A DNA stretch of 55,029 nucleotides from a virus (IMGVR_UViG_3300020470_002235:1-55029); one strand, 5' to 3'; shown: positions 5,434 to 49,538, counted from the first letter of the stretch. Notes: generated from the sequence alone by a model not told the origin. Program-made: numbers and translations.

Positions 5434-5435
5434 AA

Positions 5436-5594: not shown

Positions 5595-5600
5595 AACTCC

Positions 5601-5705
5601 TTAAGTGATTGCGAATGATACTAATAATAACTGCATAACCTCTACTACTAGTAAGAATGCAGTCAGTGTTGTTAAAATTTTTAATATTGTTATTTGTTTT
5701 CTCAT
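5601..5705 (-). CDS. 34-aa single-TM peptide
   Basis: MRKQITILKILTTLTAFLLVVEVMQLLLVSFAIT; AGGA RBS; fills the gap. Confidence 0.55.
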   Translation of the reverse strand: MRKQITILKILTTLTAFLLVVEVMQLLLVSFAIT

Positions 5706-5714
5706 TAAATTTCC

Positions 5715-6383
5715 TTATAGTTTAATTTGTGTCTTTGGGTGCGTGGGTGCATCTCCCAAAGTGTCATACTCTGTCATACTCTCTTCTAAATGAGGTGCAA
5801 ACCACATTGAGAGTACATATCTTTCCCCTGTAAGGACTGGTTCTACACCATGCCACCTTTCAGTTGAGTTATTAAAAGCAACCATTGACCCCGTAAAAGG
5901 TATTATCTTATGTCCATCTACGGTTAAGTTACCACCAGTGAAATCTTCATTTAGATTGAAGATAACAGTTCCTGTATCACCTTCATCTGAGTCGTCTTTA
6001 TGAAACGGACAAAATGATTCCATTGGGTATTTTAATATTTGCATATATGAAACCATCTCAAAGTCATCACCCCAAGGCACAAACTCATCAACCCATTCTA
6101 AAATCTGCATGAAATCAGGATTAGATGAAAGAATTGTATAAGATTCTCTTCCTTGCTCATTGGTGAACTTAACTCTGTCTTCGTCTTCTTCGTGTAAAGG
6201 TGCAAAATGACCACCATGTTCTTCGTTCATGGATTTGAGTTCAGTGAATGGTGCGACTTCATGCATTTCAATTATTGCATTACAAAGATTCTCAGGAAGA
6301 GCTGCGTGTCCGATTATTAAGATAGGATTGTTCATTACCAATTTCTCACTGGGTGTAAAAAGTTTACTTGGGTATATCTCCAA
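5715..6383 (-). CDS. 2OG-Fe(II) oxygenase, prolyl-4-hydroxylase-like (start probably about 6335)
   Basis: HKD, FTGG, HGVEPV, GERYVLSMW. Confidence 0.85.
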   Translation of the reverse strand: MEIYPSKLFTPSEKLVMNNPILIIGHAALPENLCNAIIEMHEVAPFTELKSMNEEHGGHFAPLHEEDEDRVKFTNEQGRESYTILSSNPDFMQILEWVDEFVPWGDDFEMVSYMQILKYPMESFCPFHKDDSDEGDTGTVIFNLNEDFTGGNLTVDGHKIIPFTGSMVAFNNSTERWHGVEPVLTGERYVLSMWFAPHLEESMTEYDTLGDAPTHPKTQIKL

Positions 6384-20380: not shown

Positions 20381-20456
20381 TGGAGCTGCTGGAGAGATTC
20401 GAACTCACGACCTGCTGATTACAAATCAGCTGCTCTACCAACTGAGCTACAGCAGC
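20381..20456 (-). tRNA. tRNA-Thr(UGU)
   Basis: 76-nt cloverleaf GCTGCTG...CAGCAGC-T-CCA, anticodon TGT, encoded CCA. Confidence 0.97.
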
Positions 20457-27814: not shown

Positions 27815-29113
27815 TTATCTTTTTCTACGGGTTAACTCATGTTGTTTCCATGCGAGAGCAACCTTGTTAGTAGGGAATTTACCCACCCAAGTCATAAGAT
27901 TTCCATATAATTTAGAAGCTTTGTTCTGTAAGGACTTAACAGTATCGTCATTAACGATTTCTATGAAATCTTTACCGAATATTCTTTTAAATGTATTTGC
28001 GTTTTTCTCTACTGCCTCATGTTCTTTTATTAAAATTTCAGGTGGTAGTGTTCTTGCTCTCATTGAATTGAGTCTTTGTGCGAGTTCTAAACTGGTTTTA
28101 ACAAACACCATTTTGTACTCATATCCCAATGCATCTAAATTTTTCTTATATGCTTGTATTTTACCTGCTTTTGCACTTGTAGTGTCAAAGATTAATCCTA
28201 ATCGTTCAGGAACAGCAATATCCATTTGTTTTTGTGCGAGTGCTTTTGCTTTTCCACGAATTTTGTCTCTTTTAGGGTTGACTGCACCACTTCCATTTGC
28301 AGTCATTTTCATAGACATTCCTGCTTCTTTCATGTATCTTTCAAAGTGTGTATCACTATTGATTACTTTAAGTCCTAGTGCCTTAAGTGAGAGTGCATCA
28401 ACCACTGTTGACTTACCACTTCCTGGCCCACCCATTAAGAAAACACATTTGAATATGCCTGGGTCGTAAACACCTTCTTGTAATAAGTCCTCAAACATAT
28501 AATTAGGCATAGTTTCTTCTTTGATACCCATACCACTTCTAACTTCTTTATAAAGTTGTTCTTGGTCTCTCAAGTTATTAGATGCAACACCTTTTTTAAA
28601 TGAATCAAAGTCACCCTCTTCTGCAGCCTTTCTCATTTTACTTGCAGACATTCCTGATACTCCTTCTGCATCAGGGTCTCTTTGACCTGCAGAAATGATT
28701 TCTATTGAATCAAATTTATAGTACCCGTGTCTTCCTTTAGAACCATTATACTTTTTGATAAGTGTTTCAAACTCTCTAACTCGGTCTGAACCTGCAACCA
28801 TACGAAATTCTCTATACCCTTGATTGTATAGTTCTGTAACAATTTCAAAAATTGTTCTTGCAGGTGTTTTTACAAGACCAACCTTTTTACCAAAGAATTT
28901 TCTCATCCATTTTTGTTTTGTATTATAGTCTAATGGATTTGATTTTTTATCATTTGAGTGAGACATAAACACTAGAGGTTTAAAACCACCACCCGATGCC
29001 TTAACTACTTTATCTACCAACGCACCATGTCCAATAGTAGGTGGATTAAATCGACCAAAGGCAATTACTACCTTTTGGGTTGAACTTTCATTAAATTTCT
29101 TAAATGTTTTCAT
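27815..29113 (-). CDS. HIGH-family nucleotidyltransferase (cytidylyltransferase-like) fused to a P-loop kinase
   Basis: FGRFNPPTIGH, AGSDR, MSASKMR; then GGPGSGKS and IFDTT; N-terminus MKTFKKFNE. Confidence 0.85.
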   Translation of the reverse strand: MKTFKKFNESSTQKVVIAFGRFNPPTIGHGALVDKVVKASGGGFKPLVFMSHSNDKKSNPLDYNTKQKWMRKFFGKKVGLVKTPARTIFEIVTELYNQGYREFRMVAGSDRVREFETLIKKYNGSKGRHGYYKFDSIEIISAGQRDPDAEGVSGMSASKMRKAAEEGDFDSFKKGVASNNLRDQEQLYKEVRSGMGIKEETMPNYMFEDLLQEGVYDPGIFKCVFLMGGPGSGKSTVVDALSLKALGLKVINSDTHFERYMKEAGMSMKMTANGSGAVNPKRDKIRGKAKALAQKQMDIAVPERLGLIFDTTSAKAGKIQAYKKNLDALGYEYKMVFVKTSLELAQRLNSMRARTLPPEILIKEHEAVEKNANTFKRIFGKDFIEIVNDDTVKSLQNKASKLYGNLMTWVGKFPTNKVALAWKQHELTRRKR

Positions 29114-33870: not shown

Positions 33871-34389
33871 TCATGAGACCTTGTCAATCTGTTCTTGAGT
33901 AACAGTACCCCTTTCTATTAAGATTCTTCTATGTTCCATGTGTTGAGATTCTACTAGGTCTTTATTTTCACCTGTATATGGAACTGCGTGTGCATCTAGA
34001 ATCATTTGTTCATTTACCGAAACTCTATGTTGACCTTCGAATGTTTGGTGACCACCTTTTTCGTCCATCCAATCTTCGTCTAAATCAGGAGATACAAATA
34101 ACTCTCCAAGTATCCTTCCGAATTTTCCTTTATCGTGAGATACAAGTGTTATATCACCTTCTGAAAGTAAGTGTTTCAAGTGTTCTTTGGAAGCTTTTCC
34201 GAATAGTTTTTCTACTTTATCTCTTGTTCTAGATTCTGGCGTATCGATTCCCATTAAGCGAACTCTTTGTTTTTTAAGAGTTGTAGAGAAGCCTAAATCT
34301 ATATCAACGTCAACAGTATCACCATCTACGATTTTAACGATTGAAACGTGAAATTCTGCTTGTTTAAAAACTTTCTTTTTCTTACCCAT
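33871..34389 (-). CDS. thermonuclease (SNase-like)
   Basis: IVDGDTVD, RLMGIDTPE, KFGRILG. Confidence 0.88.
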   Translation of the reverse strand: MGKKKKVFKQAEFHVSIVKIVDGDTVDVDIDLGFSTTLKKQRVRLMGIDTPESRTRDKVEKLFGKASKEHLKHLLSEGDITLVSHDKGKFGRILGELFVSPDLDEDWMDEKGGHQTFEGQHRVSVNEQMILDAHAVPYTGENKDLVESQHMEHRRILIERGTVTQEQIDKVS

Positions 34390-34393
34390 ACGG

Positions 34394-34813
34394 TTATTTA
34401 TACTGGTTGTGTTTTCTATAGGAAGTTTTTTCTTCCCAGTTCTCTACTGCCTTTTTTATTCCTTCTTCTGCGAGGACTGAACAGTGTAATTTGATTGGTG
34501 GAAGTTCTAGTGCCTTTGCAATTTCTTTATCTTTAATCTCTTTTGCTTCTTCAATAGTCTTCCCAATTAACATTTCAACAAACAAAGTTGAACTTGCAAT
34601 CGCACTACCACACCCATAGGTTTTAAATTTAACGTCTTCTATTGTGTCCCCATTCATCTTGAGGTCTAGTTTCATTACATCACCACAAGCAGGCGCACCC
34701 ACCATTCCAGTTGCCACATTTGGGTCTTTAGGGTCGAACCTACCAACTGAGTGTTTTTCGGGATTTTTGAGTACAGATTCAAATCTATCTACTACCTGTT
34801 TACTATATGCCAT
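34394..34813 (-). CDS. iscU: Fe-S cluster scaffold protein
   Basis: GAPACGDVM, FKTYGCGSAIASS, LPPIKLHCS (three Cys plus an HscA-binding LPPVK-like motif). Confidence 0.95.
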   Translation of the reverse strand: MAYSKQVVDRFESVLKNPEKHSVGRFDPKDPNVATGMVGAPACGDVMKLDLKMNGDTIEDVKFKTYGCGSAIASSTLFVEMLIGKTIEEAKEIKDKEIAKALELPPIKLHCSVLAEEGIKKAVENWEEKTSYRKHNQYK

Positions 34814-34884: not shown

Positions 34885-37395
34885 TTATCCGAAGAATGAA
34901 TCCAAACTTGCGACTGGTTCTACATTCCAACCAATTAAACTAATAATGTTTCGAAGTGGTTCAATAAAGGACTTATCAAACTGCATATCATAATCAACAT
35001 ATCCATTCAATTCAAATTCTCTTGGAAGAACATTGATAAACGATATGACGTTTTCGTTGATTGGATTTGGAACTGTAAGGTAAGTGAAGTGTATCTTATC
35101 ACTATTCTTTACGTTCTCATATCGTTTGTGGACGTTCTTCTTCTTGAGTAAGTGGTTATACAGTAATGCACCCCTAACGTGTATAGGTGTACCCTTACCA
35201 TAAATGTTTGTTGCATCTGAATATTGTGCAAGGTTATTACAACCTCTTGGTGATGCAATTTCTTCTACAGGTAGTGTTCTAAATTCCTTTCGTGCAGTCT
35301 CTACGAAGTCCCAAACTTCTTCTTCGGTTCCGTTCATGACAACCTGTAACACTTCAGTTAACTTTTTACGAACCCATTGTGGTGTACTGGACTTTGCAGT
35401 TTCAATCCCCATCATTTTTAGTTTAGGTTCTGCGAGTCGAACACCCTCATTATCTAATACATTGAGAATGTATCTTTTCTTTGCAGTCCATATTCCTCTA
35501 TCTGCAATCACCTCACGACCCATAACCATTTTCTGTTGGAATGCGTTAGTGTAATCTGCAAGGTCTTCATATCCATCAGTCAATACGTCTAGTATTTTAT
35601 TTTGACCAGCCTCATTTAGAAAATCGACAATCCTTGACTTGGGTGTACCTTCAGGAAATATCTCCTGTACCATTTTATCAAAAGTCACATAAATCGAATC
35701 GGTATCCATTGCGATTACATAATCTTCGTCTTCAGTACCTAAAACGTCATTCATGAAGTCGTTTATAGTGTTCTCTGCAGTCTTAATAATCATTTGACCT
35801 GCAGTAGTAATACCTTCTGCAAGATTAGGGTCAAAGAATGCGAAGTATTGATTCGCAAGAGCACCATATGCTGAGTTCAATGCAATCTTTCGAACCATTT
35901 GATTGTTGTTTGCTCTCTTAATAAGAGTATCGAGTTCTTTTCGTCTTGGTTTATCTGCACTCTGATATTCAATTTGATATTCAATCATTTTCCTTTTCCA
36001 GTCCTTTCTTTCTTCATAGAACTTTTCCATAAGTTCAGGAAGGAATCCTTGACGTTCTCTTGAAAACTTAACACCATTAGGTGTAACTGTACAATTCTGT
36101 TCTTTAAGTTCAGACAAGTCATGTTCTCTGTTTAATAACTTATCAATGTTCAAAGTCATAAGGTCACCCTTTATCATTTTCTCAGGTGAAACATTGTACT
36201 GCATAATAATATGTGGATACAGTGAGTTCAAATCAAATGATACAACCCAATCGTGTTTTCCAACAATAGGTTCTTTAACATACGCACCAACAATAGAATG
36301 GTGTTTTGTCTTCTCAAGTTTTTGTGGTGGTGTTTGAATTTTCTGTTCTTTAAGGAAGTTATAGATAATGGTTTCCCAATATTTTACCATACCAAAAGTA
36401 TCTGAATAATTACACTTCGCATTGTAAGCCATTGTCATGGTCAATTCCAATAGACCAAGTTTATCTTCTAGGTCTTCAACAAGTGTAACGTCTTTAACAT
36501 TGTATTCAAGATATAAAGAATAGTTGTTCTTGTAAAGTGTATGCAGGTTTCCATATTCAGAATAATCAATCTTTTGTTTATCCAATTCAAGGTGTGAAAT
36601 ATGGTCAAGTGAATATGATTCTTGATTTACAAATGTTCTTTGTTTGTATAGTGCCATGTAATCAATTACATTAACACCATATAGATTGAACACTACAACT
36701 TTGTTACCATAATTGTTAACGTAATCCCTTACGTCTGACATATTCCAAGGCGAAAACTTTTTATGTGAACCCTCTCCAAATAACTTATCAACACGATTAC
36801 AAAGATAAGTCATATCAAATGCATCAACATTCCAACCAGTAATTATATCAAAACTTTCTTTTCTCCAATACTTAATGAATGCTTCTAGTAAGAATGCTTC
36901 ATTTTCACATTCATGATAAACAACATTTTTAGGACATTCATTCCAAGGCCCAATACCAAAGGTATGTGCATTTTTTCTAAATGGTTTAATTGTGATTGCG
37001 TTGACTTTTTCTTCTGCGAGAGTTGGTTCAGGGAATCCATTTTCTGACTCACACTCAATGTCAAGTGTTGCGATTTTGATTTGGGTATAGTCCCATTCAA
37101 TATCACCATGAAACTTTTCTGCGATATAGGTGTAGATATACTTGTCATATCCATGAATTTCGAATCCATCGACTTGGTTGTATTGTTCACGGAATTTTCT
37201 TGCACCACCCATAGTGTCAAGATTGACTGGTTCTAGAGGTCTTCCGTCAAGAGAACGGAATGCTGTATCACCCTTTTTGGAAAGAACATAATGATTAGGT
37301 CTGTATGCGACCTTCATTAAATGTTGTTTATTTCCCTGATACCCTTTTACGAGTATTTTATCACGAGTACGACATACATTTGTATAAAAGTCCAT
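34885..37395 (-). CDS. gp43: family B DNA polymerase
   Basis: LDIE exonuclease motif, TGWN, SFDLNSLYP, KIALNSAYG, DTDS, KKRY; no intein-sized insert. Confidence 0.98.
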   Translation of the reverse strand: MDFYTNVCRTRDKILVKGYQGNKQHLMKVAYRPNHYVLSKKGDTAFRSLDGRPLEPVNLDTMGGARKFREQYNQVDGFEIHGYDKYIYTYIAEKFHGDIEWDYTQIKIATLDIECESENGFPEPTLAEEKVNAITIKPFRKNAHTFGIGPWNECPKNVVYHECENEAFLLEAFIKYWRKESFDIITGWNVDAFDMTYLCNRVDKLFGEGSHKKFSPWNMSDVRDYVNNYGNKVVVFNLYGVNVIDYMALYKQRTFVNQESYSLDHISHLELDKQKIDYSEYGNLHTLYKNNYSLYLEYNVKDVTLVEDLEDKLGLLELTMTMAYNAKCNYSDTFGMVKYWETIIYNFLKEQKIQTPPQKLEKTKHHSIVGAYVKEPIVGKHDWVVSFDLNSLYPHIIMQYNVSPEKMIKGDLMTLNIDKLLNREHDLSELKEQNCTVTPNGVKFSRERQGFLPELMEKFYEERKDWKRKMIEYQIEYQSADKPRRKELDTLIKRANNNQMVRKIALNSAYGALANQYFAFFDPNLAEGITTAGQMIIKTAENTINDFMNDVLGTEDEDYVIAMDTDSIYVTFDKMVQEIFPEGTPKSRIVDFLNEAGQNKILDVLTDGYEDLADYTNAFQQKMVMGREVIADRGIWTAKKRYILNVLDNEGVRLAEPKLKMMGIETAKSSTPQWVRKKLTEVLQVVMNGTEEEVWDFVETARKEFRTLPVEEIASPRGCNNLAQYSDATNIYGKGTPIHVRGALLYNHLLKKKNVHKRYENVKNSDKIHFTYLTVPNPINENVISFINVLPREFELNGYVDYDMQFDKSFIEPLRNIISLIGWNVEPVASLDSFFG

Positions 37396-37921: not shown

Positions 37922-38372
37922 AACCCAAAACTAGTTCCTGTAATTCTTTAGACCTTCGACCAACCTGACCAAACCATCTAGAATCTTCCATTTCGACTGC
38001 GACTCTTTTCCAATCTTCTTCTATAACTGCAGCCCACATATTGTTGAATTTTGCAAACCTAGTTCCACCAAGATTGAAAGTCATGTTAACTAAAACGTGT
38101 TGAATATCTTCAGGAAGTGCATAAAAATCTTCTCCACCTTTTCCTTGAAACACATGGATTGTTTCTTCAACGTGTTTATTAAAATCTGATTCATAGTATT
38201 CATCGACTGTTTCTTGACTTACTGGTGTCCCTGCAGGTTGTCCGTGTTCAGGGTCGTCTTCTTTAATAAGATGTCCAACACCTAGTGTTAAATATCCTAG
38301 TGAATCTGCGTATACTTCGAGGACTTCTCCCTCGTGTCTTTTAATCTGTTCCTTTAGAATCTCTTTGTTCAT
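37914..38372 (-). CDS. T4-type lysozyme (GH24)
   Basis: HEG-x5-YADSLGYLTLGVGHL (E-D-T triad), NMTFNLG, SRWFGQVGRR; start revised to MNKEIL. Confidence 0.92.
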   Translation of the reverse strand: MNKEILKEQIKRHEGEVLEVYADSLGYLTLGVGHLIKEDDPEHGQPAGTPVSQETVDEYYESDFNKHVEETIHVFQGKGGEDFYALPEDIQHVLVNMTFNLGGTRFAKFNNMWAAVIEEDWKRVAVEMEDSRWFGQVGRRSKELQELVLGCV

Positions 38373-38673
38373 TCTTCTCTCTCTCCGCTTGGTGTTCGAT
38401 GAGTTCAACCAATATATCACCCATCAGTGTATTTAATTCCTCAATATTTAGTAGTCCTTTTAGGTACTCTTCACTAGGTTCTACTCCATGAGGAACTCTT
38501 CTTATTGTTCTTTGAAAATTGAGATGAGGTGTTCCGTCTTCCATTTGTACTTTGCCGTACTGATATACTAAACCGTCCCATTCACCACCCTGTAATTCTA
38601 TACCTGCAGTTTTATCATCAGGATTCTCTACAACTCTGTAGACCCCTTCGTCAAATAATTTTCTAGTCGTCAT
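38341..38673 (-). CDS. hypothetical protein
   Basis: GLVYQYGKV and MGDILVELI. Confidence 0.7.
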   Translation of the reverse strand: MTTRKLFDEGVYRVVENPDDKTAGIELQGGEWDGLVYQYGKVQMEDGTPHLNFQRTIRRVPHGVEPSEEYLKGLLNIEELNTLMGDILVELIEHQAEREKNEQRDSKGTD

Positions 38674-39331
38674 TACAAAATGCGATATGGTTTTTACTAT
38701 ATCTTCCTAATCTCTTATACTGTTCATGTACATTACTGAATGAATGTCTCAATCCTTTAATGTAATGTTCATAATTTCTTTGAGTTACAAATGCGTTAAA
38801 GGCAATATAACCCTTGTTAATCTTATTTAGGTTTTCATAAAATTCTGTTGACCTAATCTCTTCAGGCATTCCTTTCGGCCCAGCTATATCAACAAAAATA
38901 TAATCATACTGCGTGGTGCAGGTTTCTACGAACTCAAATGCATCACCAATAACACAAGTAATTCTATCGTCATTAGGCATATGGAAATAGGTTTCTCCTA
39001 TATGTCTAAGGTCAAATATATCAACACTAGTGATATTCATTTGTGTATTTCTATGCAGGTAAGACGGGATAACTCCACCACCAGTTCCTAGAACTAATGC
39101 ACGTTGTTCAACTGTAGGAAGGAAAGGTAGTGTCTTGCGATACTGAAGAACTTCAACCATTTCTTTAGCATAAGTCTTTTGTAATTCATGAGGATATTTC
39201 TTCTTCAATGAAGTTTGATTCAACACACCATCAAACTCTAAAATTATACACTGTTGAGTTTCTCTAACTGCAATCTCAACACCATTTACTATTTCTTTAT
39301 AAATTATTTCACTCATAAATTCTAACTCCAA
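38663..39331 (-). CDS. spermidine-synthase-like SAM/dcSAM-dependent transferase
   Basis: ALVLGTGGG, SVDI, GDAF, YDYIFVD; paralog of the C-half of 1547-2878. Confidence 0.75.
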   Translation of the reverse strand: MELEFMSEIIYKEIVNGVEIAVRETQQCIILEFDGVLNQTSLKKKYPHELQKTYAKEMVEVLQYRKTLPFLPTVEQRALVLGTGGGVIPSYLHRNTQMNITSVDIFDLRHIGETYFHMPNDDRITCVIGDAFEFVETCTTQYDYIFVDIAGPKGMPEEIRSTEFYENLNKINKGYIAFNAFVTQRNYEHYIKGLRHSFSNVHEQYKRLGRYSKNHIAFCNDD

Positions 39332-40355
39332 ATGAACAATCGTTCATAATTGATTTATGGATACCTAGAGACGCTTTTCTTGTTCCCATAGCTCCACCTG
39401 CAAATGTATCTACAACTTCCCTTTCTTGTAAATCTCTCATTGTTACATAGTGCATATACGCACCAATTCTTTTTCTAACCTCTTCAGGTACTTCAACTTC
39501 TTCTTCAAATACCATATGGTCAATAGACTTGTTTACTAATTGATACCCAATTTTCTCATTTAGTAAAAGGTACACAATCAATCCTACAGGTACATCACCA
39601 TATTCAAACAAATAATATTCAACTGAAGGGTCATTCCAATATTCATATTTGGTAATTGCATCTGACATTCCTTTAGATAACCATTTAGTCTTTTCAACGT
39701 CTCTCTTCCAAGTTAAGAATGCATTGTTTATCTTTTCAACTACACCATCAGGTTGGTTTAATTTTCTATAAGAGACTTCAGGATTTTTTAGTAATCTATT
39801 AACACCCTTTTTGGTTCTCCACCTGTTATTCATTTTTTCCATGTTAGTATCAACATGAGAATAATAATTATAAGTTTCAAATTCAGTATGCAATTCTAAT
39901 CCTTTCTTTTCAATCCATAATGATTCTTGTTCATTACCTAAGAATTTTTTACATACATTCTCTCTCAATGCATCGAATACTAATTCTTCATTTAGTAATG
40001 AACCACTTGCACTGATTGGTAATCCTTCAAGTCTTTTATAAATGTGTTGGAACATTTGAACGTGTTTCAGTACTATCACGACCAAGTCTTCCCCAACACT
40101 TACTGTCGCAACTTTTCTTTGCCATTCATTTTTAATCTTATGATATTCGTGAACATATTCTGAAGGAAGTAATCCTTCATAACCATATCTCATTCTTCTT
40201 TGATACTGATAAAAATCTATAAACTTTTTACTGGAAGGTTCCTTGAGAGATAAACACATATCATTAAAGAATAATGAAGGGTCTACTGTTTTTAATGCCT
40301 CTATATCGATGCAGGGAATAGCTTCGAAAGGGTTCAACTCATCCAAAAAACTCAT
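39309..40355 (-). CDS. tandem-GNAT protein resembling DUF2156 / aminoacyl-tRNA-dependent transferases
   Basis: LPI, YNYY, RWRTKKGVNRL, GDVPVGLIV..LLNE....LVNKS and GAMG...SLGIHK line up by eye with the DUF2156 pattern. Confidence 0.55.
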   Translation of the reverse strand: MSFLDELNPFEAIPCIDIEALKTVDPSLFFNDMCLSLKEPSSKKFIDFYQYQRRMRYGYEGLLPSEYVHEYHKIKNEWQRKVATVSVGEDLVVIVLKHVQMFQHIYKRLEGLPISASGSLLNEELVFDALRENVCKKFLGNEQESLWIEKKGLELHTEFETYNYYSHVDTNMEKMNNRWRTKKGVNRLLKNPEVSYRKLNQPDGVVEKINNAFLTWKRDVEKTKWLSKGMSDAITKYEYWNDPSVEYYLFEYGDVPVGLIVYLLLNEKIGYQLVNKSIDHMVFEEEVEVPEEVRKRIGAYMHYVTMRDLQEREVVDTFAGGAMGTRKASLGIHKSIMNDCSFGVRIYE

Positions 40356-41703
40356 CTAGTGTACTCACTCTTGCATCTTTAAAAAAATCTCGAGCTACAC
40401 CTTTTGAAAAACACCAAATATTTTCAATGTAATATTTCTTCATGAACTCGTCCATTGCTTCTTTGTCAAAATTTCCGTCTTCATCTTTGAATACAGATTT
40501 ACCTTGAGGTCTCTGCATGATTCTCATTCCAATCTGACCGTCAAAAAATTCTTCTCCAATATGTCTGATTACTTCGTCTCCTGACCTGTATCTAACACCA
40601 TTGATTTTTGGGTCTAGAATGTTTATGTATAACACTCCACCATTTGCAAGTACATCAAAAGACGCTTGTGCAACTGGTAAATAGAACTCGTCTCTCCACG
40701 CATTATACTCATTAAACTTTGACCATGATTGGTCTTCTTCATGTTCTCCACCCTCATTATATCTCTCTGTTGAAAAATATGGTGGTGAAGTGAATGCACA
40801 ATCGATTGGTGGAAGGTTATTATAATTTAAATCTTCTGCACCACATCTATAAATCTCAACTTCCTTTGAACCAATACAAGCGAAGTAATCTTCTTGTTCA
40901 ACTAATTCAGGTTCTTTACCTGTAAGAATCTTTTCATATGTAATACATTGTTTTTTGTATCTTTCAAATGTCGCAGGGTTTGGGTCTGTTCCTATATAAC
41001 GTTTTGTGTAATTCCCTGCATAAAAACCACATAGTCTGTCACCCCAACCACAAGAAGTATCAAGTACTGTTTCACTCCTAGTGTTGTCATAGATAGATTT
41101 TGCAACAAGTGGTTTGAACTGCGTTGCAATGTATGTTCCCAATCTGAATGCAGAAATGTAAGATTTTTCATCCAACTTTCCACCCATGAGTTCTTCCTGT
41201 CCTTCAACTTGTACTTTTTGTACACCATTGATTCCTCTCCAAATAGGCCCTAAACATCTCCAAATTTCTTTAGAGGTTCCTTCTTCCCAAACTTTTACTG
41301 GTGGTTGGAAACCATAACTTCCACACGCAAGTCTTAAGTCTTGGTGAAAGAAGTTTGATGCATCACTATGAGTAGATGCACAATCAATTAAACCCATACC
41401 CCACTGGTCAAAATCAAAAGTATAATCGTCATACTTTTCCATGACCTCTTGTTCTAGGTTATCTGTAGGTGTGATACATTTACTAGTATCATAATCTCTG
41501 AGTGCAAGAAACATTTCACGCATTCTTTCGAATGAAATTTTCTTAAAAGGGAATGGTGGTCTGTTTTCTGCAATGAAATCTGCGAGTGCTAAACGAAATT
41601 CTTCCTTACCATATTCTTTGGTAATTGCATCAAAAAGGTTACCGTCTAATATAGGTAACCCTTCTGAATTTACATTGTCGGATAGAATTTGTTTTAGAGA
41701 CAC
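40339..41703 (-). CDS. amino (N4-C/N6-A) DNA methyltransferase-like protein
   Basis: VLDTSCGWGDRL SAM motif, GTDPN, FTSPPYF catalytic motif. Confidence 0.85.
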   Translation of the reverse strand: MSLKQILSDNVNSEGLPILDGNLFDAITKEYGKEEFRLALADFIAENRPPFPFKKISFERMREMFLALRDYDTSKCITPTDNLEQEVMEKYDDYTFDFDQWGMGLIDCASTHSDASNFFHQDLRLACGSYGFQPPVKVWEEGTSKEIWRCLGPIWRGINGVQKVQVEGQEELMGGKLDEKSYISAFRLGTYIATQFKPLVAKSIYDNTRSETVLDTSCGWGDRLCGFYAGNYTKRYIGTDPNPATFERYKKQCITYEKILTGKEPELVEQEDYFACIGSKEVEIYRCGAEDLNYNNLPPIDCAFTSPPYFSTERYNEGGEHEEDQSWSKFNEYNAWRDEFYLPVAQASFDVLANGGVLYINILDPKINGVRYRSGDEVIRHIGEEFFDGQIGMRIMQRPQGKSVFKDEDGNFDKEAMDEFMKKYYIENIWCFSKGVARDFFKDARVSTLDEFFG

Positions 41704-42245: not shown

Positions 42246-42276
42246 ATTTTACTCCATAATATAAAAAGATACACCC

Positions 42277-42306
42277 ATTATACTACATAACAGGTGTATC
42301 TGTAAG
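42277..42306 (-). promoter_or_regulatory. sigma70-like promoter
   Basis: AAAACCC-CTTACA-N18-TATAAT. Confidence 0.55.
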
Positions 42307-43087: not shown

Positions 43088-43115
43088 TTATAAGGTTTTT
43101 TTCAAATATTTCAAG
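43088..43115 (-). promoter_or_regulatory. sigma32-like (or sigma70) promoter upstream of the ncRNA and hsp20
   Basis: CTTGAAA-N13-CCTTATAA compared with the sigma32 consensus CTTGAAA-N13/14-CCCCATNT. Confidence 0.45.
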
Positions 43116-44997
43116 GTGTTTTTTTCAATTTTCTCAATTCTTTATCAATTAAAGGTGCATATATCTTAACTGGGATTGATTTTCCCTTAACATTTATCTC
43201 ATCAAGATACTGCCATTCACAATCAACCTGTTTCTTTGTGAACTCTGAAAATATGATTGGAGTGTCATAATCTCTTGTTTGGACTTCTAATCTAGCTGCA
43301 AGGTTAACTGCATCTCCAACAACTGAATAATCGAATCGTGCTTCACTTCCCATGTTTCCAACAATACATGGGCCTGTGTTAATTCCTGTACCGATAACCA
43401 CTGGTGGTAAATCTAATCCTTCGTCTTTGATTTCCTGATTCATTTTTTCTGTTAACAATTCTATTTCTATTGCAGAATCTAAAGCTCTTTGTGCGTGGTC
43501 GGGACAATCTAAAGGAGCACCCCACCATGCCATCAAACAGTCGCCCATATACTTGTCAATGGTTCCACCATTTTTGAGTACTATTTTTGACATACCGTCT
43601 AGGAATCTATTGATTAATAACACTAGACCTTCAGGGTCGTCATTCTTCATATAAGCTTCTGATATTGGAGTGAACCCAACTATATCTGCAAAAAGGTATG
43701 AAAGTTCCCTTCTATCTCCACCTAATTTCAATAATTCAGGGTGTTTTTGGAGTTCTTCAATCATGTCAGGCGATAAATATTTTTGGAACTGCTTCTTTAT
43801 TTGTTGCTTTTCTTTGAAGGTAACATAGTATTTGTTAAAAGATGCATGACCGAAAACAATCAAGGAGGCCATAGATGAAAAGAAGGTATCGAAGAGAACG
43901 AGACTTGAAGACCAAATATAGAAACTCCCACCCACCTGAAGTCCTACGAGTATTAGAGAAAATGTCCCCGAAAGAGCTGTGGGAAGCTTATAAACCATTA
44001 CCAACACTGTTAAGAGAACTATCAGAAGAAGAACAGATTCTACAAATTCAAGAAAGTAGGATTGCTTTATTTGAGTTCCTGTCAAAGCGGTCTGTATCAG
44101 ATTCGCTTGAACTTCGTGAGGATACATTGTACCCATTGGGGTTGAAACTGGATTGTTCAATCCTTCAGCAGTTACCCCGAACACAAGAATAGAGTTTTCA
44201 GGTAATTCGTCCGTGAAGGAATAACGTTTGAATTTATTCCAGTAACTTATCATTAAATCACCTTGAGGTGTCGTGGAAATTGGTGGTTGTCTTCCGACTC
44301 TAACCCACTCAACACCAACCTCTTCAGTGACTTTCATTTGATAAGACTTTTCGTCATTAAAAGCACGTAACACTTCAACAGCAAGTGAGGGATATATTTG
44401 TCCGTTTGCTTGCATTAAAAGTGGTGCAGAACGTATAGTTCCATCGAAATTTGGTGTTCCTGATATACTAGGAGTTGCAGTAGTTACCCCTACACCATAG
44501 GTGTTTCCCTCTAGTATAGGAATGGGACTGAGGACACCTGGCGTCCCCCATACTGCGTTTTTAGCGTTTCCTGACCCCAAAGTACTAGTTCCGACAAATG
44601 GACTAGACCCTTTTTCGGTCTGAATCGTGGGTGCTGAGGCTAAAATACTCAATCTATTGACCAAAGCAGTCGCAAATTCCTCGTCTCCACCGAATCTATC
44701 GACCTCTGAGAACACTTGCGTGAACACATAAGTGTTAGACCAGTGTGATTCTAGTAGTTTATCTGCGTATATTTTGCGTGGAAATGGTAATTGACCGTAT
44801 TGTTCTACTGACTTTTCGTCAATATCGACTAAAACTATTTCGGGAAGTCCTGATTCGGAATCGTACTCTTGAACACTATGTGTACTATGTAAGTAATCAA
44901 ACCACGACCAAGATATGTTTTCTATGAAATATGGGTTCCAAATCTTAAGTGTAAAGAGTAACCCAATGGTTACTAATACTGTTTTCCAAGAGTACAT
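43111..44997 (-). CDS. CHASE2-domain membrane adenylate cyclase (class III)
   Basis: IVLVDIDEKS, PFPR, DGTIR and TPMG in CHASE2; three TMs; FADIVGFT, IDKYMGD, GINTG, DYSVVGDAVNLAARLE. Confidence 0.93.
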   Translation of the reverse strand: MYSWKTVLVTIGLLFTLKIWNPYFIENISWSWFDYLHSTHSVQEYDSESGLPEIVLVDIDEKSVEQYGQLPFPRKIYADKLLESHWSNTYVFTQVFSEVDRFGGDEEFATALVNRLSILASAPTIQTEKGSSPFVGTSTLGSGNAKNAVWGTPGVLSPIPILEGNTYGVGVTTATPSISGTPNFDGTIRSAPLLMQANGQIYPSLAVEVLRAFNDEKSYQMKVTEEVGVEWVRVGRQPPISTTPQGDLMISYWNKFKRYSFTDELPENSILVFGVTAEGLNNPVSTPMGTMYPHEVQANLIQTALTGTQIKQSYFLEFVESVLLLIVLLTVLVMVYKLPTALSGTFSLILVGLQVGGSFYIWSSSLVLFDTFFSSMASLIVFGHASFNKYYVTFKEKQQIKKQFQKYLSPDMIEELQKHPELLKLGGDRRELSYLFADIVGFTPISEAYMKNDDPEGLVLLINRFLDGMSKIVLKNGGTIDKYMGDCLMAWWGAPLDCPDHAQRALDSAIEIELLTEKMNQEIKDEGLDLPPVVIGTGINTGPCIVGNMGSEARFDYSVVGDAVNLAARLEVQTRDYDTPIIFSEFTKKQVDCEWQYLDEINVKGKSIPVKIYAPLIDKELRKLKKTP

Positions 44998-45409: not shown

Positions 45410-45468
45410 GACACTACCCATGTTAAAACCTTCTCAAGGAATCTTATTGCTTTGGATTTTAGAGACAT
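45400..45468 (-). CDS. 22-aa amphipathic micropeptide (MSLKSKAIRFLEKVLTWVVSWK)
   Basis: TAATG overlap with the curlin-like gene; bridges the gap to the next ORF. Confidence 0.4.
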   Translation of the reverse strand: MSLKSKAIRFLEKVLTWVVSWK

Positions 45469-46133
45469 TAGTCTGATTGAGATACGTTTACAGTGCAACC
45501 ACCCGAAGTGTAACAATTCTGAGTAAGTGTATACTGTTTGTTCGTACTTCCGTCCTGAGATAAATTTAAAGTTGTAGGTTGAGTCCCTTGAAGTCTAATT
45601 TGGGAATTATGATTTCCTGAACCTGTTTGTGATATATCGGTGTCTGACCCAGTTGCACTTCCATAAAAGTAAGTGTGATTATAGTGTGAACCACTTCCCG
45701 ACTGTAAGATTTCATGTTCTACAGAACTAGAATGAATGTCTAGGTTATGTGTGTGGTCTCCATTTTGTTCTACATCAACTGTATTACTATTACCCCATAT
45801 GTGTCTACCATATGTTGCACCACCAGTTTGTGATACTGTTTCAGTATTGTTTGTACCGTCAACGTCACCACCCCAAGATTTTCCTGAACCCCAATATGAT
45901 ACCCAAGAAATTAAATTTCCATTACCTTCTTGCGTAAGGGTAAAGTCATTACCACTATGTGCAAAAGAGAAGTCTATCTTGTTATCATACCCAGTTTGAG
46001 TAATATCTATATCAACACTTCCTGATGCAACTTGGTCAATATGAACGTGGTTGTCTCCACCAAATGCTTTATATGATAATCCTAAACAAAGGATTACCAC
46101 CACACCTGTTAATAATTTAGCTCCTAAATCCAT
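45468..46133 (-). CDS. secreted curlin-repeat protein (CsgA/CsgB-like), His-rich
   Basis: signal peptide; repeated I/L-x-Q-x-G-x-x-N/H units; terminal C-x4-C; start revised to MDLGAK. Confidence 0.75.
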   Translation of the reverse strand: MDLGAKLLTGVVVILCLGLSYKAFGGDNHVHIDQVASGSVDIDITQTGYDNKIDFSFAHSGNDFTLTQEGNGNLISWVSYWGSGKSWGGDVDGTNNTETVSQTGGATYGRHIWGNSNTVDVEQNGDHTHNLDIHSSSVEHEILQSGSGSHYNHTYFYGSATGSDTDISQTGSGNHNSQIRLQGTQPTTLNLSQDGSTNKQYTLTQNCYTSGGCTVNVSQSD

Positions 46134-46134
46134 A

Positions 46135-46287
46135 CTAACCACACAACCATACAAATAATAGAGTAAGGATTACTCCTTCCCCAAATGAAATCCACATCAT
46201 CCAATAGTCGTCCAGTTTCATTGCATCTTGAAATCCGAAGATTTGTCTTTCATGCCATGTTCTGAATTTACTTAATTTATCTAACAT
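46135..46287 (-). CDS. 50-aa membrane protein
   Basis: AGGAG RBS; MLDKLSKFRTWHERQI...WISFGEGVILTLLFVWLCG; not in the ORF track. Confidence 0.7.
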   Translation of the reverse strand: MLDKLSKFRTWHERQIFGFQDAMKLDDYWMMWISFGEGVILTLLFVWLCG

Positions 46288-46295
46288 AACTACTC

Positions 46296-47429
46296 CTAGT
46301 TTGTTTGGGTAATTGTTATATTTATAGACGTACCATCCCCTACCTTAATAAATGATTCTTTTTCGTCTGTTACAGTTCTAATACTTGCTTGTGCAAACAT
46401 GGGAATCCTGATTGAAATAATTCCATTCACTTCCCTATAGAACCATATTTGTCCTAGACCCTTATCTATAATTGTATTATATTGAGAGTCTTTGTCGAAA
46501 CCTGCAACTGTTCCTTCTAATCGAACACTTCCATATTTTGCACGTTCTACATCTATACCAACTTTTCTATCAATATCCAAAACCACGTCAAGTAAATCTT
46601 GTAAAAAGTCAATGTCGAGTAAATCTCTATCTAGCTCTGTATATTCCAGCTCATCATCTTCAAAGTAGTCCGTTTCTAAATCATTGAACTCTAAGAAGTC
46701 TACATCAAGAATATTATTCGCATCATTTTCTCCACCACCTGATTCTTCTGCGACTTGGTCACTAACCTCTTCAGGTGGACTGACAATGAACATATTATCA
46801 ATCATATTAACGTTTACACCATTAACCGTTACAGGTTTTGTTGGTGAATCATCAAAGGTTGATACCATAGTTGCTTGGTATGCCTCATCAAGTGTAACAC
46901 TTCCACCAGCATTTGACACTACAATGACTCCTGAAGGTGAACCCCATTTGTCTGGCAAAAGTAGGACAAGTGAGCGTCCTAATTCGTCAATACTTGTAGT
47001 GAAATCCGTGCCTCTCACTGCGATTGTAGCAGTGGGTGTTCTAATATCAATATTCGCTTTCTTAATTTGGCCACCAAATCCCGAAGCAAATCGAGCGGTG
47101 CCTTGTGCCATTCTTAATGACATTTTTGAGAGTGATGGGTCAGGGTCATAATAGACCTCATCAATCCAAACTTTAGAATGTTCAGTTAGTGAAAGTTCTT
47201 CCGAACCTGAAAACTGAATTTTCATTCGTCCGTTTTGTGTTTGTGCAGTGTCATACATTAAAACATCAGGTTTTTCTGATGCTAAGATTACGGTGTTATC
47301 ACCGTCTCTTGTAAGACCTGCGTAACCTTTTTCCTCTATGATTTCACCAATCGAGTCAGCGTTAACCGACCCGACTAGTAAAATACTAAGAATCGTTATC
47401 GTCTTTTTGAACGATGTCAATATTTCCAT
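46296..47429 (-). CDS. periplasmic FecR-domain protein
   Basis: signal peptide, D-x3-T, GTARFASG, IRTPTATIAVRGTDF, acidic linker. Confidence 0.85.
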   Translation of the reverse strand: MEILTSFKKTITILSILLVGSVNADSIGEIIEEKGYAGLTRDGDNTVILASEKPDVLMYDTAQTQNGRMKIQFSGSEELSLTEHSKVWIDEVYYDPDPSLSKMSLRMAQGTARFASGFGGQIKKANIDIRTPTATIAVRGTDFTTSIDELGRSLVLLLPDKWGSPSGVIVVSNAGGSVTLDEAYQATMVSTFDDSPTKPVTVNGVNVNMIDNMFIVSPPEEVSDQVAEESGGGENDANNILDVDFLEFNDLETDYFEDDELEYTELDRDLLDIDFLQDLLDVVLDIDRKVGIDVERAKYGSVRLEGTVAGFDKDSQYNTIIDKGLGQIWFYREVNGIISIRIPMFAQASIRTVTDEKESFIKVGDGTSINITITQTN

Positions 47430-48117
47430 TAGAAGTCACGAAGGTTACGTCAATAATACCACTACAAGATTGACCATTTGGACAACCTGTATCTGAACCT
47501 GATTTCTGAATGATGTCTATATCATTACTAGAACCAGTTAAGATTGCAGTAATACTATTATCGGTTGCATCTGATTGATTAGTGTTAACGTCATTTGAAG
47601 AACCAGTAATAGTCCAGTTCCAAACAGCATTATCTGAATCAACAACAGTTGTAAATATATTACTAGAACCACTAACTACTAAATCGTAGTTTAAATATTC
47701 TGCAGTTGCATTTGCACCAATATCAATATTCCATGTGTTAGAATCACCAGTAACGGCACTTAACATATTAATGTTATCAGCACTATTTTGACCAATGTTC
47801 CAGTCCATGACATTTGAATTTCCAGTAAATGTAAGGTTAAGAGTCGCTGAGTCAGCAATCATAGGCCCGTATAGTTTGTTACTGTCTCCAAATTGGACAA
47901 GTGTAAACGTGTTACTTGCACCAGTCAAAACCATATCAGCAGATGTTCCTGAGAAATCATCTAAACCAACTTTGTTTCCATAACCTTTCTGCGTGAAATT
48001 CAATACAAGTCCTGTACCTGTTTGATTCAACCATATTTCGTTATCGTCTGCCCCTGCGAATACTGTGGCAGGTAGTAGACCTAATGTTAACATAATGAGT
48101 AATAGTTTATTCTTCAT
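47386..48117 (-). CDS. secreted curlin-like beta-solenoid repeat protein
   Basis: signal peptide; about 8 (T/Q)-G-x-x-N repeats; terminal C-x5-C; start revised to MKNKLL. Confidence 0.75.
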   Translation of the reverse strand: MKNKLLLIMLTLGLLPATVFAGADDNEIWLNQTGTGLVLNFTQKGYGNKVGLDDFSGTSADMVLTGASNTFTLVQFGDSNKLYGPMIADSATLNLTFTGNSNVMDWNIGQNSADNINMLSAVTGDSNTWNIDIGANATAEYLNYDLVVSGSSNIFTTVVDSDNAVWNWTITGSSNDVNTNQSDATDNSITAILTGSSNDIDIIQKSGSDTGCPNGQSCSGIIDVTFVTSNGNIDIVQKDDNDS

Positions 48118-49039
48118 TTGTTTTTCCCTCTGTAACGAGAACAAGTTCATTTTCGTCTAAAAAGTCTGACACTTCCTCTTTTATTTTAGATTCGGTTATC
48201 GGCCAATTTATCTTCCAAAATCCTCTCTCATCACCTTGATAGATTAATTCGAGAACAGCAAGTTCAATCGCAGACCGAGTTGCTTTCGTAACTCCTTCGT
48301 TGGTTGCTACACCGTCCTCTATTTCCACTAATTTCGTATCCATGTCTACGAAACGGAATACATCGTACCCACCACCAGTCGATAAAATTGTCTTAGTGGT
48401 TTGTACATTAAGTAAAATTTCACCAGTAAGTGTTGATATTCCTCTCAAACTTACCGTGACCACATCTCTTCGGTATTGATTCGAAGCGCCAATCCCTAAG
48501 TATCTTGCGCCTCGGCCTCCCGATTCAATGTTAGTATCATAACCAACAATCCCACCGTCAAGTAGGACTCCTGCAAACAAGAGTGGTTGGATACCCGTAG
48601 GTGAATCCTCATTACCCTCTTGATTCGCAAAATCTTCTCTCGCAGAACGAACAATTTGCCTTTCTCTTACAAGTGCATCTAAGTTCGTACGTTCTACTAC
48701 TCTAAACCATTTTCCATTACCTGCAGTTTTAAGTGCATCGATAAGAAACGATTCACCACCTTGTGTTACTGCAGTTGAGAAAGATGCAATTCCGTCTTTG
48801 CTCTTACGTTGTCCCGTTTTATCTAGGAAACCGTAAACTGCAACAATAGGCATTGTTTCTGCAGGTGGTAATTCTAATAATTCTAAATGTGTAGGAAGTT
48901 TAACTGCTTCTGCATCTTCAATACAGGTTCCAATCTTGTCCATGATTGTAGTACTACAAGTGTCATTTACACTTGGAACACTTGCACACCCAGTCGTGAG
49001 CAAGACCATTAATAGTCCTACAAATCCTACACTTTTCAT
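48107..49039 (-). CDS. csgG: curli secretion lipoprotein CsgG
   Basis: lipobox TTGC, VAVYGFLDKTGQRK, STAVTQG, WFRVVER, LVRERQIVR, GGIVGYDTN, GARYLGIG. Confidence 0.95.
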   Translation of the reverse strand: MKSVGFVGLLMVLLTTGCASVPSVNDTCSTTIMDKIGTCIEDAEAVKLPTHLELLELPPAETMPIVAVYGFLDKTGQRKSKDGIASFSTAVTQGGESFLIDALKTAGNGKWFRVVERTNLDALVRERQIVRSAREDFANQEGNEDSPTGIQPLLFAGVLLDGGIVGYDTNIESGGRGARYLGIGASNQYRRDVVTVSLRGISTLTGEILLNVQTTKTILSTGGGYDVFRFVDMDTKLVEIEDGVATNEGVTKATRSAIELAVLELIYQGDERGFWKINWPITESKIKEEVSDFLDENELVLVTEGKTNEE

Positions 49040-49040
49040 T

Positions 49041-49538
49041 TTAAAAACTACCAGTACCTACAGGTATGTCTAATGTTGTTGTGGTTCCATCTGAAGAAAC
49101 AATAGTCAATCTTATGAACTCTACTCCATCTTCTCCTACTAGTTTCTCATATGTAACCGTATTTCCTTCAATAGTGAACATTCCGAATGAAGCTGCTTCT
49201 CCATTACTGAACATATTCTCTACTAATTGTTTCGCTATTTGAGCATAAATTCTACTCTCAACATTTCTTAAAAATTTTGCGAGCGTAGTGTTATCCGCTT
49301 CTCTTTCTGCTTTTGCAATAGCGTCTTTTATATCTTGTTCAATTTTATCACGTCTTGATTTTTCTTGATTTTCAATCGTGAGATAATGTGAACTTTGTCC
49401 AACTCCACTGAAGCTTGGACTCTTAAATTTATGCACAATTTCATCTGCTTCGATTGACGAAGCAAAAAATGTAAGTAGTATTGCATAACCTACTACTAAT
49501 AATTCTTTATCTTTTCTTAGTTTCATCTTTTTTAGCAC
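49041..49538 (-). CDS. csgF: curli assembly protein CsgF
   Basis: signal peptide then EIVHKFKSPSFSG; ESRIYAQIAKQL; directly upstream of csgG. Confidence 0.85.
   Translation of the reverse strand: MLKKMKLRKDKELLVVGYAILLTFFASSIEADEIVHKFKSPSFSGVGQSSHYLTIENQEKSRRDKIEQDIKDAIAKAEREADNTTLAKFLRNVESRIYAQIAKQLVENMFSNGEAASFGMFTIEGNTVTYEKLVGEDGVEFIRLTIVSSDGTTTTLDIPVGTGSF

Follow-up and report, generated by a model that had tools for sequence, protein, structure and literature searches.

Genes for a predicted double GNAT transferase and a spermidine-synthase-derived enzyme form an accessory cassette behind a backbone methyltransferase gene of marine T4-like phages: a candidate tRNA-dependent modification pathway

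The stretch IMGVR_UViG_3300020470_002235:1-55029 (here called the window, meaning all 55,029 nucleotides of the DNA analyzed) is a 55-kb IMG/VR record, estimated to be 30% complete, that covers the replication region of a T4-like phage and encodes the gp43 polymerase, gp44, gp45, UvsX, gp41, a primase and NrdA. Our study concerns three overlapping genes on its minus strand, named MT454, mid348 and SpeE222 after the lengths of their products (Table 1), which an earlier reading made from the sequence alone (the sequence-only reading) had described as a coupled set and a candidate new modification pathway. The open reading frame (ORF) listing and the sequence itself agree with the extents given there. 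We found that mid348 and SpeE222 are an accessory cassette located immediately behind MT454-family genes, and that MT454 is a backbone gene that usually stands alone. MT454 and mid348 overlap by 17 nt, as read from the sequence, and mid348 and SpeE222 overlap by 23 nt if the latter starts at TTG or by 8 nt if it starts at the ATG at 39316; since the SpeE222 homologues begin with MSEI, the ATG start (217 aa) is the more likely one. It is important to note that the flanking genes overlap too, by 1 nt between the peroxiredoxin gene and MT454 (TAGTG) and by 11 nt between SpeE222 and the next gene (38341-38673), so the overlaps are not specific to the trio, which is part of a longer, tightly packed unit. 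Homologues of MT454, mid348 and SpeE222 occur in other contigs at 27-97% identity; therefore, these are genes and not chance ORFs. The trio lies upstream of gp43, as had been noted, but does not adjoin it directly, since four small genes, a lysozyme gene among them, separate SpeE222 from the polymerase gene (34885-37395).

Table 1. Coordinates of the three genes, their motifs and a promoter-like site in the window.
Feature	Position	Strand	Description
MT454	40339-41703	(-)	454 aa; class-I amino-methyltransferase, predicted to be SAM-dependent; backbone gene of the phage clade
MT454 motif I, DTSCGWG	41041-41061	(-)	
MT454 motif II, GTDPNP	40975-40992	(-)	
MT454 motif III, CGAED	40831-40845	(-)	
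MT454 motif IV, TSPPYF	40774-40791	(-)	residues 305-310
mid348	39309-40355	(-)	348 aa; predicted soluble double GNAT of Fem/MprF-C (DUF2156) type, putative aminoacyl-tRNA-dependent transferase
mid348 conserved basic segment, NNRWRTKKGVNRLLK	39786-39830	(-)	
mid348 aromatic-Lys dyad, H333-K334	39354-39359	(-)	K334 in 39/39; residue 333 Y/H/F in 39/39
SpeE222	38663-39331	(-)	222 aa; class-I enzyme, apparently derived from spermidine synthase; TTG start
SpeE222 LGTGGGV in place of GGGDG	39071-39091	(-)	
SpeE222 VDIAGP in place of DSSDP	38876-38893	(-)	
Promoter-like site, CTTACA-18-TATAAT, with overlapping 16-bp hairpin, then T-run	42267-42306	(-)	consensus match only
SAM, S-adenosylmethionine.

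The AlphaFold2 (AF2) model of mid348, built from a 23-sequence alignment, has a predicted local distance difference test score (pLDDT) of 93.7 and a predicted template-modelling score (pTM) of 0.90, and it consists of tandem GNAT lobes in one chain that Foldseek matches with probability 1.00 to FemX, DUF2156, Sba18 and MprF-C. In the structure search of 39309-40355 against the PDB, FemX of Weissella occupies ranks 1-6 (best E 7.7e-10, template-modelling (TM) score 0.56), followed by the soluble DUF2156 protein 2hqy (ranks 7-8), the tRNA-dependent peptide synthases Sba18/Sbb17 (ranks 9-11) and DUF2156/MprF/L-PGS entries (ranks 12-14); the first acyl-CoA (acyl-coenzyme A) GNAT appears at rank 15 with a TM-score of 0.28, and acyl-CoA tandem GNATs follow at lower ranks with TM-scores of 0.36-0.45. 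The nearest named ESM Atlas clusters are LPG_synthase_C, Acetyltransf_6 and Mig-14, and sub-threshold Pfam matches were obtained for 6 of 39 distant family members (five to Acetyltransf_6 and one to LPG_synthase_C). In the viral structure library BFVD, the best TM-score (0.52) belongs to a 'FemAB family protein' of an uncultured siphovirus, and the best E-values belong to phage GNATs and to N-myristoyltransferases of giant viruses. The sequence-only reading had matched the motif order of mid348, by eye, with that of DUF2156/MprF-C tandem GNATs and had noted that mid348 lacks a membrane domain. The AF2 model and the Foldseek and ESM comparisons bear out this assignment, and the missing membrane domain agrees with a Kyte-Doolittle scan in which no 19-residue window exceeds a mean of 1.28; no membrane segment or amphipathic anchor was found in the sequence. 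The fold of mid348 as a soluble double GNAT of Fem/MprF-C type is thus confirmed at the level of the predicted structure.

At the sequence level, mid348 had no Pfam match at E <= 0.1 and none in PHROG, NCBIfam or PADLOC; PF09924 had no match in any of the six frames of the window, and a tblastn search with mid348 against 50,697 phage records returned no match. Its family comprises 31 proteins in a set of 5.8 billion, all unnamed or 'hypothetical' except for a single partial row, labelled in its source as a DUF497 family protein, and 61 representatives among 1.84 billion clusters. Within the scope searched, the family appears to be confined to marine viral sequence. For the distant sub-family A4 (six sequences, 20-25% identical to mid348), no genomic context was found in viral, genome or metagenome contigs.

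The features shared by tRNA-dependent GNAT transferases, according to the accessible sections of PMC12945691, are a double GNAT, a basic tRNA-binding helix and a catalytic Lys, which is K305 in FemX and K329, together with F328, in DhpH-C. Across the 39 members of the mid348 family, which are 17-53% identical, the only invariant residues are P113 and K334, and the AF2 model places K334 in the penultimate helix. The conserved basic segment falls in residues 173-200 (helices 177-190), a region whose net charge is +1 to +11 in 23/23 sequences of family set A1 and in 39/39 sequences of set A3. The hallmarks of a tRNA-dependent transferase therefore appear to be present in mid348, as judged from its sequence. 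We also considered that mid348 might instead be an acyl-CoA-dependent tandem GNAT acting as an N-acyl or N-acetyl transferase. Tandem acyl-CoA GNATs (2wpw, 7q3a, 5kf2 and VipF) are also significant Foldseek matches, at about 1e-6; the BFVD E-values point in the same direction; and mid348 carries a KRIGA stretch, K295-R296-x-G298-A299, at the beta4-alpha3 position of the CoA P-loop, where GNATs bind the CoA pyrophosphate. Against this, the 14 best PDB matches and the highest TM-scores all belong to tRNA-dependent or DUF2156 proteins, R296 is an Arg in only 9/39 members of the wider family, and the one invariant residue besides P113 is a C-terminal Lys after an aromatic position, as in FemX and DhpH-C. 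We therefore regard an acyl-CoA donor as improbable.

SpeE222 matches the Pfam family Spermine_synth (PF01564) above its cut-off (33.6 bits vs 22.9, 3.7e-8) and Methyltransf_30 weakly, and it aligns with PDB spermidine synthases at 3e-6, with METTL13 and TrmR as weak matches; its likeness to spermidine synthase, which had been pointed out from the sequence, is therefore upheld. The label attached to it, aminopropyl/methyltransferase, fared unevenly. The N-terminal beta-domain motif G-x-L-x-Q-(T/S)-S is kept, but the alignment with the PDB spermidine synthases has a gap opposite the Asp of GGGDG and DIAGP opposite DSSDP, and this double replacement (GTGGGV and DIAGP) is common to 11/11 family members examined. 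The NCBIfam aminopropyltransferase equivalogs score far below their cut-offs (PRK04457, 64 bits vs 304). In spermidine synthases, the Asp of GGGDG excludes the carboxylate of S-adenosylmethionine (SAM), thus selecting decarboxylated SAM, and the second Asp of DSSDP binds the diamine; loss of the first Asp accompanies the shift to putrescine N-methyltransferase. Since SpeE222 lacks both residues, we read it as a SAM-dependent amine methyltransferase and not as an aminopropyl transferase, so the methyltransferase half of the label is favored and the aminopropyl half is weakened. SpeE222 is probably an amine N-methyltransferase.

MT454 had been called an amino-methyltransferase on account of an SPPY motif, and this call stands: it matches Pfam N6_N4_Mtase above the cut-off (32.8 bits vs 26.7, 8.6e-8) and carries motif IV, (D/N/S)PP(Y/F), together with the SAM motif I. 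The motifs DTSCGWG, GTDPNP, CGAED and TSPPYF are invariant, in the order I-II-III-IV, in 21/21 homologues. The Pfam match covers residues 300-436, in the C-terminal half only, and profile positions 1-108 of 221, and the N-terminal ~200 residues matched no known family. With an AF2 model of pLDDT 87.2, Foldseek retrieved from the PDB only generic class-I methyltransferases, so the comparison does not discriminate between DNA, RNA and small-molecule substrates. The nearest ESM clusters are viral and auto-named cytosine-N4 DNA methyltransferase, Type II methyltransferase models of PADLOC match MT454, and the tblastn matches in cultured phages are all distant (24-30% identity), some of them being genes of Staphylococcus and Vibrio phages annotated as DNA or N4-cytosine methylases. 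The family is large, with at least 2093 homologues at E <= 0.001 among 4643 candidates and with at least 558 of 599 candidate stretches confirmed in IMG/VR. Taken together, MT454 appears to be a conserved SAM-dependent amino-group methyltransferase of the replication-gene backbone, for which DNA is a candidate substrate. A prediction of the MT454-mid348 complex scored 0.00 ('no answer') and is evidence neither for nor against an interaction. The fragment has a second methyltransferase-like gene (12980-14749, minus strand), which overlaps the 3' end of the NrdA gene (14718-17030); its product of 589 aa shows a weak C-terminal match to class-I methyltransferases (RrnaAD, PrmA).

The gene neighborhood was compared among 31 distinct IMG/VR contigs with mid348 (28 plus three more). 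Upstream of mid348, 27 of them have an MT454-family gene, which amounts to 27/27 informative contigs, the other four (L016, L023, L106 and L108) each having <1 kb of upstream sequence; it adjoins mid348 directly in 20/27 and is one gene away in 7/27, where the intervening gene encodes a pyridoxal-phosphate (PLP) enzyme in six contigs and a PP-loop ATPase in one (L026). A SpeE-like gene lies downstream of mid348 in 25/31 contigs, or 25/26 informative ones, given that five contigs end too early; the remaining contig, L026, has a UvsX-like gene in its place. The association is not reciprocal: mid348 is present at 7 of the 80 best MT454 loci, and of the 98 rows of the MT454 tree described below, 26 continue with mid348, 53 are without it and 19 are unscorable, a row being scored as lacking mid348 only when >=1.3 kb of downstream sequence is present. 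MT454 thus occurs without the cassette in 53/79 scorable contigs. Hence, of the coupled unit proposed in the sequence-only reading, the co-occurrence in relatives stands, and the trio is not an obligatory unit; its interpretation is partly supported overall, keeping its fold and family calls and the co-occurrence and losing part of the aminopropyl assignment.

Two arrangements of the backbone were identified. The first, as in the window, is Prx-MT454-[slot]-orf110-lysozyme...pol43, and the second is pol43-MT454-[slot]-UvsX-gp41. The slot after MT454 is empty in most relatives. In the others it holds mid348 plus the SpeE-like gene; a PLP enzyme together with mid348 and SpeE, to which an HD protein may be added; a PP-loop ATPase plus mid348; a PLP enzyme alone (L056, at 5343-6179; L095; L105); or a gene like 2-oxoglutarate (2OG) hydroxylases plus a RimI-like GNAT (L034-L036, L041 and L042; for example, L035 at 3162-4155). 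The PLP enzyme resembles 1-aminocyclopropane-1-carboxylate (ACC) deaminase and SbnA, the PP-loop ATPase resembles TtuA, MnmA and QueC, and the 2OG enzyme resembles 'non-proteinogenic amino acid hydroxylase' and Asp/Asn-hydroxylases. Judging from these likenesses, the other slot genes would act on amino-acid-like or nucleic-acid substrates, and those of mid348-free relatives may be alternative tailoring sets for the same substrate. HNH endonuclease genes adjoin replication genes both in the fragment (26453-27805) and in L026 (1503-2255, between pol43 and the MT454 homologue), and they may mark mobile-element activity near the variable slot.

Phylogenetic trees were built for MT454 (98 proteins, after dropping seven duplicate or foreign loci and all MT ORFs of <380 aa) and for mid348 (30 rows, fragments of <250 aa dropped). 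Both are quick trees with support from the Shimodaira-Hasegawa-like approximate likelihood-ratio test (SH-aLRT) only, and with long branches flagged. The cassette-bearing rows occupy four places in the MT454 tree: a 17-row clade with the window (SH-aLRT 100), L017 with L025-L028 (SH-aLRT 99), L018/L019, and L020/L022 (100), the last two pairs being the deepest branches under midpoint rooting; the presence of the cassette requires at least three changes of state. The mid348 tree separates two types with a split support of 100. Type 1 comprises the window clade, L017 and L018/L019, all directly adjoining MT454, and type 2 is mostly preceded by a PLP or PP-loop gene. L017 is in conflict between the trees, since its MT454 groups with L025-L028 and its mid348 is of the other type, that of the window; this incongruence argues that cassettes moved between lineages and kept their position behind MT454. 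The pattern of trees and positions is what a functional tie to MT454 predicts; alternatively, the 3' end of MT454 may be a hot spot of recombination.

One further possibility, on which both the slot contents and the family assignments bear, is that the module modifies a protein, by N-terminal aminoacylation like that of L/F-transferase or Ate1 followed by N-methylation with a METTL13-like SpeE fold, MT454 being a HemK-like glutamine or amine methyltransferase acting on a protein of translation or replication. Relatives that modify proteins exist for each of the three folds, METTL13 being a weak PDB match of SpeE222, and other contigs have a RimI-like GNAT in this slot. L/F-transferase is counted among the tRNA-dependent GNATs in the accessible part of PMC13219725, the Ate1 GNAT appears in our literature listing, and several translation genes are reported for pelagimyophages in the available sections of PMC7029224. 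No L/F-transferase or Ate1 structure is found among the Foldseek matches listed for mid348, however, the named relatives of MT454 are DNA methyltransferases, and no candidate protein is known. A protein target is thus, in our view, very unlikely.

The uncultured marine phage is probably a pelagimyophage, and its host is probably a Gram-negative SAR11-type cell. We treat it as pelagimyophage-like because the window contains a curli CsgG/CsgF cluster, and curli clusters, whose function is unknown, are described as typical of pelagimyophages in the sections of PMC7029224 available to us. This curli-type secretion cluster (45468-49538, minus strand) encodes CsgG (48107-49039, 1.7e-48), CsgF (49041-49538), a curlin-repeat protein (45468-46154) and a FecR-domain protein (46296-47429). 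Two phage tRNA genes were identified on the minus strand, tRNA-Ala(UGC) at 4269-4344 and tRNA-Thr(UGU) at 20381-20456, either of which might serve mid348; the sequence-only reading had suggested tRNA-Ala as a possible supply.

We propose that these genes aminoacylate a substrate, possibly a nucleic-acid base, in a tRNA-dependent reaction and then N-methylate the product, and we assign to this reading as a whole a probability of roughly 0.4; the genes, folds, motifs and synteny are those described above, from which we infer the tRNA donor, the order of the steps and the acceptor. The region would be a translationally coupled tailoring module of the phage. In it, mid348 would transfer the aminoacyl group of a charged tRNA, from either host or phage, to an amine (or hydroxyl) of the acceptor, which its two GNAT lobes would hold between them, SpeE222 would N-methylate the newly added amine with SAM, and MT454 would act on the same substrate. 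The favored acceptor is a nucleic-acid base, with phage DNA as first choice, because MT454 carries the amino-group motif of base methyltransferases and sits among replication genes, because mid348 is never seen without MT454 in the informative contigs, because the slot alternatives include PP-loop and HD enzymes of nucleic-acid type as well as enzymes for amino-acid moieties, and because there is a precedent in which a phage GNAT moves glycine from tRNA to DNA adenine. This precedent is Mom of phage Mu, which, according to the accessible part of PMC13219725, uses Gly-tRNA to transfer glycine to the N6 of adenine in double-stranded DNA; the idea of DNA hypermodification, already raised in the sequence-only reading, therefore has a direct precedent.

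Several observations weigh against this proposal. With respect to mid348, the curated profiles of FemAB, LPG_synthase_C and Acetyltransf_6 leave the protein of the window unmatched at E <= 0.1, and its family profiles A1 and A3 obtained 0 and only 3 matches to PDB sequences, the latter at chance level. The TM-scores to double GNATs of the aminoacyl-tRNA type reach only 0.45-0.56, K334 was likened to K305 of FemX by position in the sequence, and the KRIGA stretch lies at the position of the CoA site of GNATs. No fused, longer form of mid348 was scored in the search, which is weak evidence. Regarding MT454, its Foldseek neighbors are mostly RNA or small-molecule methyltransferases, and the protein is acidic, with an isoelectric point (pI) of 4.7. 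MT454 is often found without the cassette, and its slot also receives unrelated genes. An insertion hot spot could account for the adjacency. The characterized relatives of mid348 all act on peptidoglycan precursors, lipids or small molecules. The legend of Fig. 5 in the Mom paper states that donor and acceptor are not predictable from structure (PMC13219725, as far as accessible), and restriction-modification systems are very rare in sequenced SAR11 genomes according to the sections of PMC7029224 available, which weakens an anti-restriction motive.

An alternative is that the cassette aminoacylates an acceptor other than a nucleic acid, such as a peptidoglycan precursor (as FemX does), the head group of phosphatidylglycerol (as MprF does), a polyamine or another small metabolite; SpeE222 would then act on polyamines or on the product, and MT454 would be an ordinary DNA methyltransferase marking the left border of an insertion hot spot. 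Every characterized structural neighbor of mid348 acts on acceptors of this kind (including those in the accessible sections of PMC12945691), 2hqy is a stand-alone soluble DUF2156 protein, the varied and mostly empty slot fits a hot spot, and a lysozyme gene lies two genes downstream of the trio. Cell-wall-related genes and a polyamine gene are mentioned for pelagimyophages in the available part of PMC7029224, and in HTVC008M a SpeE-like gene stands by itself at another genomic site, with neither MT454 nor mid348 in its vicinity, a case that is in itself not informative. On the other side, mid348 is always accompanied by an MT454-family gene in the informative contigs, this tie holds across both backbones and through an exchange of cassette type, SpeE222 lacks the residues for aminopropyl transfer, and mid348 has neither a membrane segment nor an amphipathic anchor. 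We judge an acceptor of this kind to be unlikely, though a serious contender.

A broader version of the nucleic-acid proposal, which we consider rather doubtful, is that pelagimyophage-type phages carry a modular tRNA-dependent system for nucleic-acid hypermodification. The MT454-family enzyme would define or prepare the target base, the double GNAT of Fem type would attach to this base an amino acid taken from charged tRNA, and interchangeable tailoring enzymes (the SpeE-derived N-methyltransferase, PLP enzyme, PP-loop ATPase, HD protein and 2OG hydroxylase) would sculpt the base further. In a bolder variant, MT454 would transfer the aminocarboxypropyl group of SAM instead of methyl, thus giving the amine for mid348 to acylate. 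If the modular version were true, a family of new amino-acid-bearing bases would exist in some of the most abundant myophages of the ocean.

Phages with this locus occur widely in seawater metagenomes. We detected the locus almost unchanged (at least 0.94 of sampled words) in 14 runs belonging to six marine or seawater studies, one of them possibly the source of the record. RNA libraries contain contigs that agree with MT454 over 40487-40646 and 41204-41402 (0-1 differences) and also with the peroxiredoxin gene, and one 157-nt contig of a relative (10 differences) spans the junction between mid348 and SpeE222; these are assembled contigs in which DNA carry-over is possible, and they leave most of mid348 and SpeE222 uncovered. 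The promoter-like site of Table 1, located between the Hsp20 and peroxiredoxin genes and upstream of the latter, is a possible start of a transcription unit running through the trio, judging from its consensus match; this evidence is weak, since 19 such sites were found against 21.7 expected in shuffles.

Other genes of the fragment, all on the minus strand, deserve mention in their own right. At 43111-44997, upstream of the Hsp20 and peroxiredoxin genes, a 628-aa protein combines a CHASE2 sensor with an adenylate/guanylate cyclase domain; it is conserved in many related contigs, with 54-98% identity in the best tblastn segment, and a membrane signalling cyclase is an unusual product for a phage to encode. 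A 432-aa protein (27815-29113) has an N-terminal cytidylyltransferase-like part and a C-terminal AAA_33/zeta-type kinase domain, and presumably resembles the NadR-type enzymes of NAD salvage. The interval between the polymerase and UvsX genes (33871-34813) contains a NifU_N iron-sulfur scaffold gene (34394-34813, 3.3e-38) and a staphylococcal-nuclease-like gene (33871-34389).

If the target of the module were DNA or RNA, the locus would reveal hypermodified bases not seen before and show that abundant ocean viruses draw on host translation intermediates in a new way, and it would be a second candidate, unrelated to Mom, for charged-tRNA-dependent DNA modification; if the target were a lipid, the cell wall, a polyamine or a protein, the module would provide a new kind of auxiliary function for SAR11-type phages. 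The system is tractable in either case, as it consists of three small proteins predicted to be soluble, with natural cassette-bearing and cassette-less relatives and an invariant Lys. We found no description of the mid348 family or of the gene trio in the full-text literature, a scope that excludes most subscription journals, and the words methyltransferase, spermidine and acetyltransferase were not found in the available text of PMC7029224. Given that this class of fold is already known, and that some phages have genes annotated as Fem-like, the novelty lies in the sequence family itself and in its conserved genomic setting, both of them new, and the substrate of the cassette is possibly new as well.

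Among known systems, Mom is the model for the favored interpretation. To our knowledge, Mom is the only shown case of aminoacyl transfer from tRNA to DNA, and before it was studied charged tRNA was not known as a donor in DNA modification. It is a single enzyme of temperate enterobacterial phages. Like mid348 as we interpret it, Mom is a phage enzyme of GNAT fold with a charged-tRNA donor, in which R111 and S124 are essential; it differs as a single GNAT-superfamily enzyme that acts alone, whereas mid348 is a double GNAT with two partner enzymes (PMC13219725, accessible part). Mom is absent among the Foldseek matches listed for mid348. Like the DNA methyltransferases of N6_N4_Mtase, MT454 has motif I, the SPPY form of motif IV and an above-threshold Pfam score; it differs from them in its half-profile match, its motif order (I-II-III-IV), its 200-aa N-terminal domain without a fold family and its low pI. 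SpeE222 shares the Spermine_synth profile and G-x-L-x-Q-(T/S)-S with spermidine synthase and its methyltransferase offshoots (plant putrescine N-methyltransferase, the METTL13 C-domain and the MnmC methyltransferase domain), and departs from spermidine synthase in having GTGGGV for GGGDG and DIAGP for DSSDP.

For mid348, the best structural match is FemX of the FemABX family (Weissella viridescens FemX, PDB 1ne9 and 4ii9), over about 355 columns. Both are soluble double GNATs of about 335-350 aa with a C-terminal aromatic-Lys dyad and a basic helix, the equivalence of the last two being suggested by sequence; mid348 differs in its identity of only 10-11%, in the lack of a FemAB Pfam match and in its location in a phage replication module instead of a cell-wall operon, its host being probably a Gram-negative SAR11-type cell. 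The C-terminal domain of MprF and the aminoacyl-phosphatidylglycerol synthases (LPG_synthase_C, DUF2156) are linked to mid348 by fold matches (2hqy, 5vrv, 4v36, 9j8q and 7f47), by LPG_synthase_C clusters in ESM and by the weak Pfam match in 1/39 family members, and are distinguished from it by the flippase or membrane domain and the Pfam match that mid348 lacks. The natural-product GNAT transferases (Orf11/Sba18/Sbb17, PacB, VlmA and DhpH-C) are comparable in fold (9wqy, 9wqx and 9wqw, TM 0.49-0.53) and in organization, since they are soluble, stand alone, are encoded together with tailoring enzymes in biosynthetic gene clusters and use small amines as acceptors (PMC12945691, accessible sections). 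Those systems belong to actinomycete antibiotic clusters, whereas the cluster of mid348 is phage-borne and led by a DNA-methyltransferase-like gene.

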